A stretch of 64,000 nt of DNA from Octopus vulgaris (lineage: Eukaryota). The stretch covers positions 3,782,001 to 3,846,000 of the forward strand of contig OX597827.1 in NCBI GenBank assembly GCA_951406725.2, read 5' to 3'. Numbering within the stretch: position 1 is the first letter of the stretch; every line of letters begins with the position of its first letter. The notes below the pieces were generated by a model. The model was not told the origin of the DNA. It ran no database searches and was given only the letters and a program-made list of their open reading frames with translations. Positions 9,771-59,384 of this stretch are shown piece after piece. The translations under genes and the position numbers were made by a program.

Positions 9771-10306
9771 TGATAATAATAGTAATAATAATACTGATGA
9801 TGATAACAATGATGAAATTAATAAGAGTCAGAGTAATAAGATAAACTACAATAAAACTATAACGCTAAGCTTTGTTACTATCAAGCTACTGGATTCTGGT
9901 TTGAAATAATATTCCCTCCATTAGGTCTTCTTGATAAGATAAAATGTTTTGCTGAGATGAAAATACAAACATAAAGAAAAAGAAAAAAATCTTGTATTCC
10001 TTAGATCTTTCAAACATAAGTATTTTACTCTAAAAATACCATGCTGTGTGCTGCAATTATTTTAGACTTCCAACATGTTTAGCTGACCTTCACTAACCAG
10101 GTTTGACTCAACCAGCAAATAATCTACAGGGGAGCTTCTAATTCTGTTTCTCAAATAAAAATGTAGCCTTTAGGAATAGAGAATTCCCCTTTTTACTTCA
10201 ACCGATTTTAATAGTGCCTTGTTTGTACATAGTTCAAAGATTCCATCAGAGCAAAACCATTTGAATGCATTGCATGCCACAGATAGGTTGTAATCTTTGA
10301 ACTTAC

Positions 10307-10457
10307 CAGCTAGGGTTTCATAAAGCCCGTTGTTTCCACCTTCACTGTTTATGCTAGGACCACAGTCATCTGAACGAGATGATATCGTTGAAGATTCATT
10401 CAGATGTTTTTCTTTTTTACCTGCACCAGATGTCACAGCAGTGTCTTGAAAGCACAT
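10307..10457 (-). CDS. PCDH: Protocadherin, coding exon 2 (cytoplasmic)
   Basis: Acceptor ttttttttcatag|ATG in phase 0 matches the 26681 donor; consensus donor GCTG|gtaagt. 151 nt encoding MCFQDTAVTSGAGKKEKHLNESSTISSRSDDCGPSINSEGGNNGLYETLA plus 1 nt. Confidence 0.8.
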
Positions 10458-22052: not shown

Positions 22053-22310
22053 GCATGGCTATGTGGTAAAGACGTTGGTCCCCAACTACATAGTTCTGAG
22101 TTCAATCTTACTGCATAGCATCTAGAGCATCTTCTACTATAGCCCTAGTTACTAACCAAAGCCTTGTGAGCAGATTTTGTTGATGGAAACTGAAAGAAGC
22201 CCGTCGTGTGTGTGTGTGAGTGTGTATACCTATATATATATATATATATATTATATATTATATATATATATAGGTATATGTATATATATATATATATAGA
22301 TATATATATA

Positions 22311-22353
<43 letters not shown>

Positions 22354-22625
22354 TAGCTATCGCCAAGCTAATATGGTAGTCTATAAATATAAGACTAAAG
22401 CTGCCGTTGATTAGCTCCAAGAGGCCATCGCCTCTAGCTAGCTATATGACACACGAACCTGTGTCCATTATAACCTTCGAACAGGGGAGGTCAGCCGCTT
22501 CCCCTTGCTGGTCAGACATCTGCAGACATGTTTCAGGGTATTTGCCCTTTATCAATGCAGATTAGCCAGACCCAGCAGGCATCACTACTAACCGTCTGTT
22601 CGAAGTATTATTTACCTATCCACTG

Positions 22626-22680
<55 letters not shown>

Positions 22681-22935
22681 GGTATATGTATGTATATATA
22701 TATATATATAAGTATATGTATTTATCTATGTATTTGTGTTGTGCATATGCTCACCACCACCACCACTTGGCAACTGCTGTTGGTTTGTTTATGTCCCTGT
22801 TACCTAGCAGCTCAAGAAAAGGAATCAATAGAATAAGTACCCGACTTATAAAAGCTTCTGCAGTTGAGTTGTTTGACTAAAGCCTTTATAGCATGCCCCA
22901 GCATGGCTGCAGTGCAAAGACTGAAAGAAGTAAAT
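22053..22935 (+). mobile_element. SINE family B copy interrupted in its internal (TA)n by a 280-bp ribozyme cassette
   Basis: Head at about 22053-22205, tail at about 22740-22935, unrelated insert at 22351-22630 flanked on both sides by (TA)n. Confidence 0.8.
22518..22562 (-). ncRNA. Minimal type I hammerhead ribozyme with U3:A8 core covariation
   Basis: 5'-ATCTGCA TTGATAA AGGG CAAATA CCCT GAAA CATG TC TGCAGAT: perfect 7-bp stem I, 4-bp stem II, palindromic stem III ACATGT, GUC cleavage triplet. Confidence 0.8.
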
Positions 22936-26429: not shown

Positions 26430-26680
26430 TATGAAGATTGACATAACTCTGCATGAAGGCAAAATGCACAATAAGAAGAGTGTGATACAATTTGTAATGA
26501 ATAAAGATTGACTCTGTTTATTGGATTGAGCACTATTTCAACCTTCAACATTCAACTTCAATAAACAGTCTCAATCTCTTTTACAAATTGTATCATATTC
26601 TTCTTATTATGCAATGATAATAATAAATATGATTATTATTATTATTATTATTTTCAAGAATGTCTTTAAAGATAAATTAC

Positions 26681-29098
26681 CTGATAAGTTCCTTGACTTA
26701 TTTCTGGATGTTGTTGCTGGTGGTGCTGCTGCTGTTGATGCCGTAAAGATGAACTTTTCCAGGTATTATCTGAATGAGGGTCTCTCCTTAACACCGTTGC
26801 AGGGTGAATTCCTGGATGTGTCACCATTATGACTTGTCCGTCATTTTGAGGCGTCATTTGTTGACACATATATTCAGACTCTCCTCTATCACCAATAAAT
26901 TTACTGCTTTGGTCTATTCCATCGGTATATAGAATATCTCTGTTATGATTTCTTCTTACAATGCATACAGTCACTGAAACTACAATGGCAACAGAAACTA
27001 TCACAGCTGCTACTACTATAATAATCATCAAATTAATATGTATTCTATTATCCGACTCTGTGTCTTCAGAGATGTACATTCTTGCTGTTGTATTGCTAAC
27101 AGTTAGTGTCAAAAAGAGTGTAGTTGTTGCTGATAGAACTGGAGTACCGCTGTCTTTGACAGCTAATTCTAAATTATATGATCCAGCATCATTTTGGTAA
27201 ACGGTTCGAGAGAAAGATAAAACTCCTGTATAAGGGTTAACTTTAAATAGCTGTTTGTTATTGCCTCCAAATATTTCATACCTGAGGAAGGAATTAACAT
27301 GACTGTCTCTGTCGGAGGCTCTTAATGTTGTGATGTCACTCTTACTCTGTGGATGGTAGTGGACATCTAGATTGAAAGGGTTAACACTGGGGAATGTAAA
27401 ATATGGTGCATTGTCATTTTTATCCATAACTTCAACAACAACAACTGCTGTACTGTTGAGTGAAGGTATACCATTGTCTTTGACTAAAACTTTGAAATTA
27501 AAAACTTCTTGCTGTTCCCTGTCCAGTGGCTGAGTTGTTGAAATGAATCCAAAGTCAGATATTTCAAATGGAAGAAGGAGACCTTTGCTGTGACCAATCA
27601 AAGAGTAAGTCAACTGACCTCCAAGCCCTAGATCAGGGTCTGTTGCATTAATATAGCCCACAGGGAAATTGGGTTCTTCATTTTCATAAGTAAGAAATTT
27701 GAATGTATCTTTGGTGAAATGTGGTTGTACATCATTGACATCAAGCACTTGAATTGAGAACTCTCTAACAGTCTTCAAAGGTGGCGATCCATGATCCTCA
27801 CAAGTAACAACCAAATCAACATGGTTGCTCTTCTCTTTGTCAATTTGTTTCATTACAACCACTTTGTACTTCTTTAGACCCAAACTCTTGAGCTGAAATC
27901 CATTATTATTGAGGTCGCAGCTAACATTTCCATTTTCTCCAATGTCATTATCTGTGATTTTCATGAAAGCGATAAAGCTGCCTATTTTAACACCTTCAGA
28001 AATTGCGACTTTGTTTTCAGCTGATTTTGAAATAAAGTTCAAGTCAATAACTGGAGCATTATTTTGGTTGTTGTTTATATAAACCAACACAACTGCTGTT
28101 GAACTCGAAGGTGGATTTCCACCATCGGTAGCTTTCACGAATAGTTTATACATATTTTTAGAACCCGATGTGGTGTCTTTTATGATATAGATATCTCCTG
28201 TCTCTTTGTCCAGTCTAAAGAAAGTTCTTGTTAAAGCTGATGTTTTCGAACTGAACAAATATGAGATTTTTCCATTGTCACCTGAATCAAGATCAGTAGC
28301 TGACAAAGTAATAATTGGTCTCGATCTATCAAAGCCATTATTAACAGAAACATTATAGAGATTTTGACTAAATATTGGTAAGTTATCATTGACATCTGTA
28401 ACTGAAATACTAATTTCTAAAAATCCTTGTTTTGTAGGAAATCCTTCATCTCTGGCAATAATTTGTTCCTTGTAATGTTCATTTGTTTCACGATTTAACT
28501 TCTCTTGTAAAATTAACTCCAGACTATCTGTGCCATCAACCTTCTTAGAAACAGATAATATAAATGGATCATTTAGATTTTTTTTTAAGTGGTAAGATAT
28601 TTTTGAATTTAAAACACCTACATCTTTGTCAATGGCATTTGGAATAAACTTTGCTGTTCCTCTGCCATCAGTTTCAGAGAATTGCAAATTGATTTGTTTC
28701 TCAGGAAACTCAGGTTGATTGTCATTAACATCTTCTATGATTATTTTTATTTCAAGAATTTTTACAAAGGACTCTTTATTTCGGACTGCAACATCCACCA
28801 TCTGGAAGCACTCTGTGTTATATTTGCAGAGTGCTTCAGCATCCAACCTTTTGGCTGTGTAAAGTTTCCCAGACTCTGATACGTTGAATAACTGTGAACT
28901 AGTTGTTGCATCTTGCTGGAGTGTGCTAAACCAAATAAGGTTCTTCTCCTGGAATGGTACAATACCCAGGGTTTGTGTATCTACAGCAATGTTTCCAACA
29001 AATGTTCCAGGGATCTGTTCTTCTTCTATATGATAAATATGGTCAATGCCAAATGATTTATCCACAAGCAACGGGAACAGCCACAAAATCACCAGCAT
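26681..29098 (-). CDS. PCDH: Protocadherin (cephalopod type), large first coding exon: signal peptide, EC1-EC6, TM, proximal cytoplasmic tail (806 aa)
   Basis: 810-aa ORF with hydrophobic leader, DxNDN motifs (EDVNDNQP, TDVNDNLP, LDVNDVQP, MDKNDNAP), DxD and LDRE-type motifs, EC1 C-x5-C (LCKYNTEC) and TM LMIIIVVAAVIVSVAIVVSVTVCIV. A phase-0 donor CAG|gtaatt lies at 26681/26680, four codons before the ORF stop. Confidence 0.96.
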
Positions 29099-58920: not shown

Positions 58921-59033
58921 ATAGAATAAGTACCAGGTTTAAAAAGATAAATACTGGGGTTGATTCATAGAATTAAAATATATATGGAAAAAAAGTCAAG
59001 ATAGAAAATGGTAAAATAATTTTATATAAAACA

Positions 59034-59075
59034 TTTCAGTACCGGTTTCAGTCATTGGGACTTTTTCAACTGTAA
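59034..59075 (-). ncRNA. Minimal hammerhead motif with U3:A8 covariation (left arm)
   Basis: 5'-TTACAG TTGAAAA AGTC CCAAT GACT GAAA CCGG TA CTGAAA: 4-bp stem II, palindromic stem III ACCGGT, GUA triplet, stem I with one mismatch. Confidence 0.7.
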
Positions 59076-59261
59076 GTTTGGAAAGCAATTAAATTTTTGA
59101 AAAATTATAAGAAAATTTTTTTAAAAGAATATTTTCATGGCATTCAAATACAAGTAGCAGGCAGAAACAAGGAAAATGGCACTTGTATTCGAACACTTTG
59201 CAAATATTCATTTAAAGAACTTTTCTTTTAATTTTTCCAAAATATAATTGTTTTCCATAGG

Positions 59262-59302
59262 TACAGTTGAAAAAGTCTCAATGACTGAAACTGGTATTCA
59301 AA
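59262..59302 (+). ncRNA. Mirror-copy hammerhead motif (right arm)
   Basis: TACAG TTGAAAA AGTC TCAAT GACT GAAA CTGG TA TTCAAA; core and stem II intact, stem I weakened. Confidence 0.55.
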
Positions 59303-59384
59303 TGTTTTTTTATAAAATTATTTTAGCATTTTCTATCTTGACTTTTTTTTCATATATATCAACTCATGTGTTCCTTTACAACCT

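Follow-up and report, generated by a model that had tools for sequence, protein, structure and literature searches.

Host gene and features of the locus

The window analysed here, a stretch of 64,000 nucleotides of Octopus vulgaris DNA, contains part of a protocadherin gene, which was mapped with the tail of a named octopus protocadherin (99% identical) and whose third exon maps beyond the window. From the mapping of exons 1 and 2 (Table 1) it follows that the hammerhead motif lies in sense orientation within the 16.2-kb intron 1. The motif lies 4155 nt after the donor (about 4.2 kb in the original prediction). The exon-1 frame continues four codons into intron 1 and then meets a stop (window 26666-26680), which might permit a short form without splicing.

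Table 1. Coordinates of the annotated features (positions in the window)
Feature	Position	Strand	Remarks
Hammerhead, type I	22519..22561	-	stem I 6 bp, stem II 4 bp (A10.1:U11.1), stem III 2 bp plus palindrome
Outer stem, 5' arm, 10 bp	22596..22605	-	family feature
Outer stem, 3' arm, 10 bp	22475..22484	-	from sequence and fold
5'-truncated repeat copy	22351..22630	-	unit 94-361 plus 12-bp inverted 5' piece; non-coding
Micro-inversion, 12 bp	22619..22630	+	repeats unit 83-94 in reverse complement; lies at the 5' truncation
(TA)n tract, 3' end of element	22230..22350		likely insertion target
(TA)n tract, 5' end of element	22631..22712		from sequence
LINE-type target site	22574..22591	-	empty, CpG-decayed; unit 121-138
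Protocadherin coding exon 1	26681..29098	-	cadherin repeats; donor 26681/26680
Protocadherin coding exon 2	10305..10457	-	51/51 aa identical to the tail of the named homolog

Structure of the hammerhead motif

According to the sequence and script-derived positions, the motif is a type I hammerhead that carries U3:A8 instead of C3:G8. Stem I is formed by 22561-22556 and 22524-22519, and stem II by 22548-22545 and 22538-22535. The core comprises U3 (22555), A8 (22550), A9 (22549) and G12-A14 (22534-22532, with G12 at 22534), while stem III closes a 2-nt loop within the 6-nt palindrome ACAUGU. With C17 at 22525, the predicted cut falls at 22525/22524. The 3:8 pair, G12-A13-A14, A15.1:U16.1 and H17, which characterize a type I core, are all in place; the 10.1:11.1 pair, however, is A-U rather than the usual G-C. 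The U3:A8 hammerhead motif, sense to the protocadherin, is real. As for the flanking outer pairings that were also proposed, the outer inverted repeat is a perfect 10-bp match, and the inner one is bulged.

Fold z-scores equal −4.2 for the minus strand and −4.5 for the plus strand, and thus cannot choose between them. When the window copy is folded as a monomer, G5-A8 is predicted to mispair with the cleavage strand, and the predicted probability of stem III is 0, a value partly forced by the minimum loop size of the program. The dimer cofold (−31.4 vs 2 × −13.2 kcal/mol) does not represent the active fold and is not used as evidence. The short palindromic stem III fits a dimer-dependent ribozyme as described in the available text of PMC4209133, in line with the partner requirement suggested originally. 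Rfam reports no hammerhead match for the motif, either at the gathering score or at E ≤ 10; the minimal stem III together with the 3:8 swap may place it outside the Rfam hammerhead models.

The dispersed repeat family

Positions 22351-22630 (280 bases) correspond to exactly one copy, truncated at its 5' end, of a dispersed repeat of 361 bp, with 97.0% identity to a full unit found elsewhere in the genome (locus L003). A genome search with these 280 bases yielded 64 scored matches, derived from the best 40 of 2622 candidates, and near-full-length matches among those scored are mostly 92-98% identical to the window copy. The exact 34-nt core occurs 158 times in the genome, and exact U3:A8 cores with stem II left free occur 466 times, in both cases with about equal numbers on the two strands and none for the control. 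The C3:G8 core combined with the stems of the window family has 0 exact matches in the genome. The motif, its U3:A8 pair and the outer stems in the intron copy are inherited family features.

Insertion anatomy was summarized over 28 distinct loci (30 fetched minus two duplicates). The 5' ends are variable, and the 3' ends fall at unit positions 358-361. An inverted 5' copy is present in 11 of the 28 loci, a partial tandem in 8, and a tail of 53-59 nt that repeats the start of the unit in 10. A TA or TAA microsatellite adjoins the 3' end in 14 of 28 loci, compared with a background of 7.7% in the window. Head-to-tail dimers of 360-362 bp and one trimer are found at loci L065-L067. Like Penelope-like elements (PLEs), the family includes copies that are truncated on the 5' side, that form partial tandems, that carry an inverted 5' piece or that end in a tail on the 3' side; partial tandems, inverted 5' copies, tails and microsatellite bias are given as PLE traits in the consulted part of PMC8557442. 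The unit is non-coding, occurs in tandem and contains a type I hammerhead, and its length of 361 bp lies within the 150-450 bp expected for a non-LTR retrozyme.

Covariation among sister families

Sister families were reached by following composite copies, and they have homologous backbones with different cores (CCGAUGA, CCGACGA, CUGAUGA, UUGACGA, and UUGACAA). Over 93 distinct contexts, sampled with a bias towards the window family, the 3/8 states are U/A (76), C/G (14), U/G (1), A/G (1), and C/A (1). Covariation was computed for 17 hand-picked, related representatives, and this relatedness inflates the figures. Pairing is preserved in 96.8% of cells, and both-sided changes are seen at 9 of 13 pairs (5/6 in stem I and 3/4 in stem II), which argues against the window fold having arisen by chance. 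Among the same representatives the 3:8 pair is U-A in 9, C-G in 7 and U-G in 1. Stem III pairs are invariant and thus uninformative on covariation, and the loop is palindromic in most sister families. The covariation score of 0.60 was reached by 0 of 500 shuffles, and slid controls did not exceed 0.14.

These values support selection on the ribozyme in the history of the element, as opposed to selection at the intron locus. The suggestion that the double change at 3:8 reflects past selection on catalysis is borne out in the same sense, as C3:G8, U3·G8, and U3:A8 all appear across the sister families (17 rows). The U3-A8 state, however, is already published for Schistosoma Penelope-like elements and is not new: about 1,300 such motifs are reported among PLE-related hammerheads of S. 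mansoni (PMC4209133, in part).

Several sister families (at L088, L091, L097, L098, and L101) carry a family-wide U4C core (CCGAUGA or CCGACGA) with covarying stems; according to the available text of PMC3088659, U4C is weakly active in vitro. A second, unrelated U3:A8 hammerhead-like motif lies 36 kb away on the minus strand (window 59000-59330, core at 59069). It has a different stem III palindrome and a GUA triplet, and its repeat has an inverted partner copy; similar motifs occur at loci L071 and L099.

LINEs and ORF1-only cassettes upstream of the hammerhead

In four sister families, L1/Tx1-like LINEs and their ORF1-only derivatives are located 25-40 nt upstream of the hammerhead core, flanked by repeat-derived duplications of 14-18 bp. 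In other copies of the window family it is the unit 121-138 site that is duplicated around ORF1-only cassettes. Two wider-spaced core pairs enclose cassettes of about 1.75 kb with a 445-aa frame containing a CCHC-type motif. The protein has 12,747 candidates in the genome, and among the best 150, which were scored, many have open frames. The frame has no Pfam match, no close database match and no Atlas match. It was considered as an unknown gene, but it is a LINE ORF1, homologous to frames directly ahead of an APE-RT ORF2, and homologs of this ORF1 carry zf-CCHC.

For the insertion sites, 30 cassette loci were chosen by protein similarity alone, and only pattern-recognised 3' ends were counted. 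Not every copy is independent, given the PLE-type inversions and tails of the composites. All 28 recognisable 3' ends lead into a repeat-derived motif of 14-18 nt, followed either by a hammerhead core 25-40 nt further on (18) or by a further cassette or LINE (10, including one with the automatic label 'other'). Of the exact ends, 13 of 14 cassette ends and 12 of 13 LINE 3' ends coincide with repeat-derived target sites. According to the script, the target motif of the same family is present on both sides of 21 of the 30 cassettes, on one side of 4 and on neither side of 5. Cassette lineages cluster by host repeat family with some switches (8 changes vs 17 when shuffled). Filled sites are rare in the window family, with 14 exact junctions vs 466 cores, and the site in the window copy is among the empty ones.

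At L161:4409-9907, two identical motif copies enclose an L1/Tx1-like LINE whose ORF2 is open over 1133 aa, immediately 5' of a U3·G8 hammerhead repeat. Its ORF2 contains PF03372, PF00078, and PF13966 (APE, RT, and zinc finger, respectively); the nearest solved protein is L1 ORF2p, and homologs bear no clade name. These LINEs are called Tx1-like from their architecture and from the habit of Tx1 elements, not from a tree. At the same site, two or three distinct ORF1-only cassettes follow one another in L107:6448-10000 with L108:1-2162, in L063 and in L064. Each chain sits in one window-family repeat copy, and the L107/L108 proteins are 57-86% identical to that of L064.

Arrays of 4-8 related ORF1-only cassettes also occur at another target (L104-L105, L111-L112, L118, and L120-L121). 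One of them ends in an APE-RT LINE, the repeat involved has CCAAT/TATA-like boxes, and no hammerhead was found near these arrays.

Overall, the LINEs were quite probably placed at a fixed spot upstream of the ribozyme by targeted insertion. It is also conceivable, but distinctly more doubtful, that the LINE and cassette lineages are nested parasites which co-diversified with the repeats and exploit them for transcription, for processing by the hammerhead and for mobilisation of the Penelope type; the uncertain part of such a scheme is whether the composites make use of the ribozyme.

RNA reads on a composite copy were taken from two runs of a related organism, together with two contig sets. 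The reads number 253 in one run and 292 in the other and fall on both strands, with no pile-ups of starts or ends and with the hammerhead core uncovered, and hence they are silent on cleavage. Head-to-tail joints appear in 38 and 59 reads, respectively, and genomic partial tandems give an identical joint. In one run, contigs over an ORF1 cassette (L074:1900-2100) show many A>G differences, at 28 places, which may represent paralog divergence or RNA editing.

Proposed origin of the intron copy

The dispersed family with its copy number and insertion anatomy, the covariation among its sister families and the solo intronic position are all observed, and the following route is inferred. At tandem source loci, two hammerheads would pair via the palindromic stem III and cut out a unit-length RNA, possibly circularised. 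A Penelope-like RT/GIY-YIG protein would then copy this RNA in trans into microsatellites, a process that would yield the partial tandems, the inverted 5' pieces and the tail. The intron copy would have landed in sense orientation by chance and would since have undergone neutral decay as a passive product. Non-LTR retrozymes are argued to be non-autonomous PLE derivatives in the available part of bioRxiv 10.64898/2026.07.22.740005.

An autonomous Penelope-like element that shares the repeat was not found among the best-scoring genome candidates. A Neptune-type element abutting the unit at L113 was rejected as the partner, as 0 of 24 other fetched copies continue into the repeat. A Neptune-like GIY-YIG fragment beside L010 and L017 was rejected as well, since it has its own terminal repeat, dissimilar by eye. 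The fragment itself (L017:400-1480) adjoins family copies inside a (TA)n tract, and its inverted terminal repeat contains an atypical hammerhead-like fold.

Alternatively, the 361-bp unit might belong to a longer, autonomous PLE as nothing more than its terminal repeat (pLTR), in which case the window copy would be the truncated 3' end of that PLE. PLE hammerheads usually reside in pLTRs, mostly as single truncated motifs (PMC4209133, in part), and the genome searches scored the best candidates only. However, the sequence upstream of the core in 60 loci is more unit, inverted unit or unrelated flank, the two longer-spaced core pairs enclose LINE ORF1 cassettes rather than RT, and pure head-to-tail trimers exist, which makes a pLTR unlikely.

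Activity of the intron copy

Relative to most of its 32 close copies, the window copy has 6 substitutions, two of them CpG-type and none in the core. At this rate an untouched 35-nt core is expected by chance in about 45% of cases, and 16 of the 32 close copies have an equally intact one. Variability among these copies is 1.6% in the core vs 3.7% in the flanks, which runs counter to the reading of an inert copy. This difference may stem from selection on source elements or from ascertainment, and some constraint after insertion may also contribute.

Neither a second window-family copy nor another hammerhead with the ACAUGU palindrome was detected in the window or in the next 40 kb downstream in the direction of the gene. 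Without a partner in cis, the intron copy would cut rarely if at all. According to the consulted text of PMC4209133, a single minimal PLE hammerhead shows no cleavage, and dimers show low cleavage. The solo copy, the 2-bp stem III and the lack of a cis partner in the region searched together make a role in cleavage or splicing unlikely. The intron location is likewise unremarkable, given that 42-44% of retrozyme copies in Xenopus are intronic (bioRxiv 10.64898/2026.07.22.740005, in part).

With a probability of about 85%, therefore, the feature is a solo 5'-truncated copy of the 361-bp repeat in a (TA)n tract, the repeat itself is likely a non-autonomous PLE (non-LTR retrozyme), and the copy is likely inert. 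It is very improbable that the copy cuts protocadherin intron 1 alone, with a protein or with a partner in trans, and alters splicing or gives rise to a short isoform: its sense orientation in a confirmed intron, its intact core, the exon-1 frame that meets a stop within a few intronic codons, and the precedent set in RECK and C10orf118 by conserved intronic hammerheads with a proposed origin from repeats (PMC3088659, in part), are outweighed by a young and multi-copy insertion, core intactness at chance level, the weak stem III with A10.1:U11.1, the missing cis partner, the slowness of PLE hammerheads even as dimers, and the commonness of intronic placement. The splicing or short-isoform function envisaged in the original prediction is accordingly not sustained, the motif being an inherited one in a solo copy with no partner detected in the window or in the next 40 kb downstream.

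Comparison with known systems

The octopus motif resembles the PLE type I hammerheads of Cervera and De la Peña 2014 (PMC4209133, in part) in its type I fold, its short palindromic helix III that needs a dimer, its thousands of mostly single genomic motifs with close inverted pairs, and the U3-A8 state known from S. mansoni. In contrast to the minimal hammerheads of that paper, the helices have 'canonical' metazoan sizes, with 6 bp in helix I and 4 bp in helix II; A10.1:U11.1 replaces G-C, and no linked RT frame was found.

With metazoan non-LTR retrozymes (the accessible portions of PMC7229834 and bioRxiv 10.64898/2026.07.22.740005) the repeat shares a single type I hammerhead in a unit that is non-coding and measures a few hundred bp. 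It also shares the occurrence of monomers, dimers and a trimer, and the proposed status of a non-autonomous PLE derivative. The octopus repeat, however, occurs mostly as scattered partial tandems in which inversions are present, and not as long arrays. The word 'octopus' is absent from both sources.

The hammerheads in the amniote genes RECK and C10orf118 are likewise sense in a host intron; they show cleavage in vitro, and their conservation extends throughout mammals and, for RECK, to birds (PMC3088659, in part). The octopus motif, in contrast, is one among hundreds of family copies, with 97% identity, and lacks the rarity and, by prediction, the monomer-competent fold of this exapted intronic type.

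As for the LINEs, site-specific insertion has precedents in Tx1L within Tx1D and in tandem SINEU-3 within Mariner-N4, and ORF1-only elements have one in HAL1 (PMC4494074 and PMC5753468, respectively, both in part). The octopus elements are similar to Tx1-clade LINEs in that an APE-RT LINE occupies a fixed site of another mobile element, with sequential tandem insertions sandwiching the duplication, and similar to HAL1 in their ORF1-only derivatives. They differ from the Tx1 precedents in their target, which is a hammerhead retro-repeat; four sister families with differing target sequences are all hit at one structural position.

Novelty and implications

The element belongs to a known type of hammerhead retro-repeat, and the octopus repeats may already be listed in Repbase, Dfam or paper supplements. 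In the literature searched, the combination of hammerhead ribozyme, Penelope-like element and octopus returned only the Naiad paper. LINE insertion targeted to hammerhead repeats has no report in the open-access literature searched; such targeting would be a variation on known Tx1 behaviour.

The intron motif alone matters little, as hundreds are scattered in the genome. The family, however, provides a natural series of cores (C3:G8, U3·G8, U3:A8, U4C, and varied stem III palindromes) on homologous backbones, which is directly testable for the evolution of the hammerhead 3:8 pair. If the LINE and cassette lineages are indeed nested parasites of the repeats, the composites would be protein-coding retrozymes. 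For site-specific LINEs, finally, the target class would be new, with a single site used across repeats with different target sequences, and this bears on how APE endonucleases follow an evolving target.
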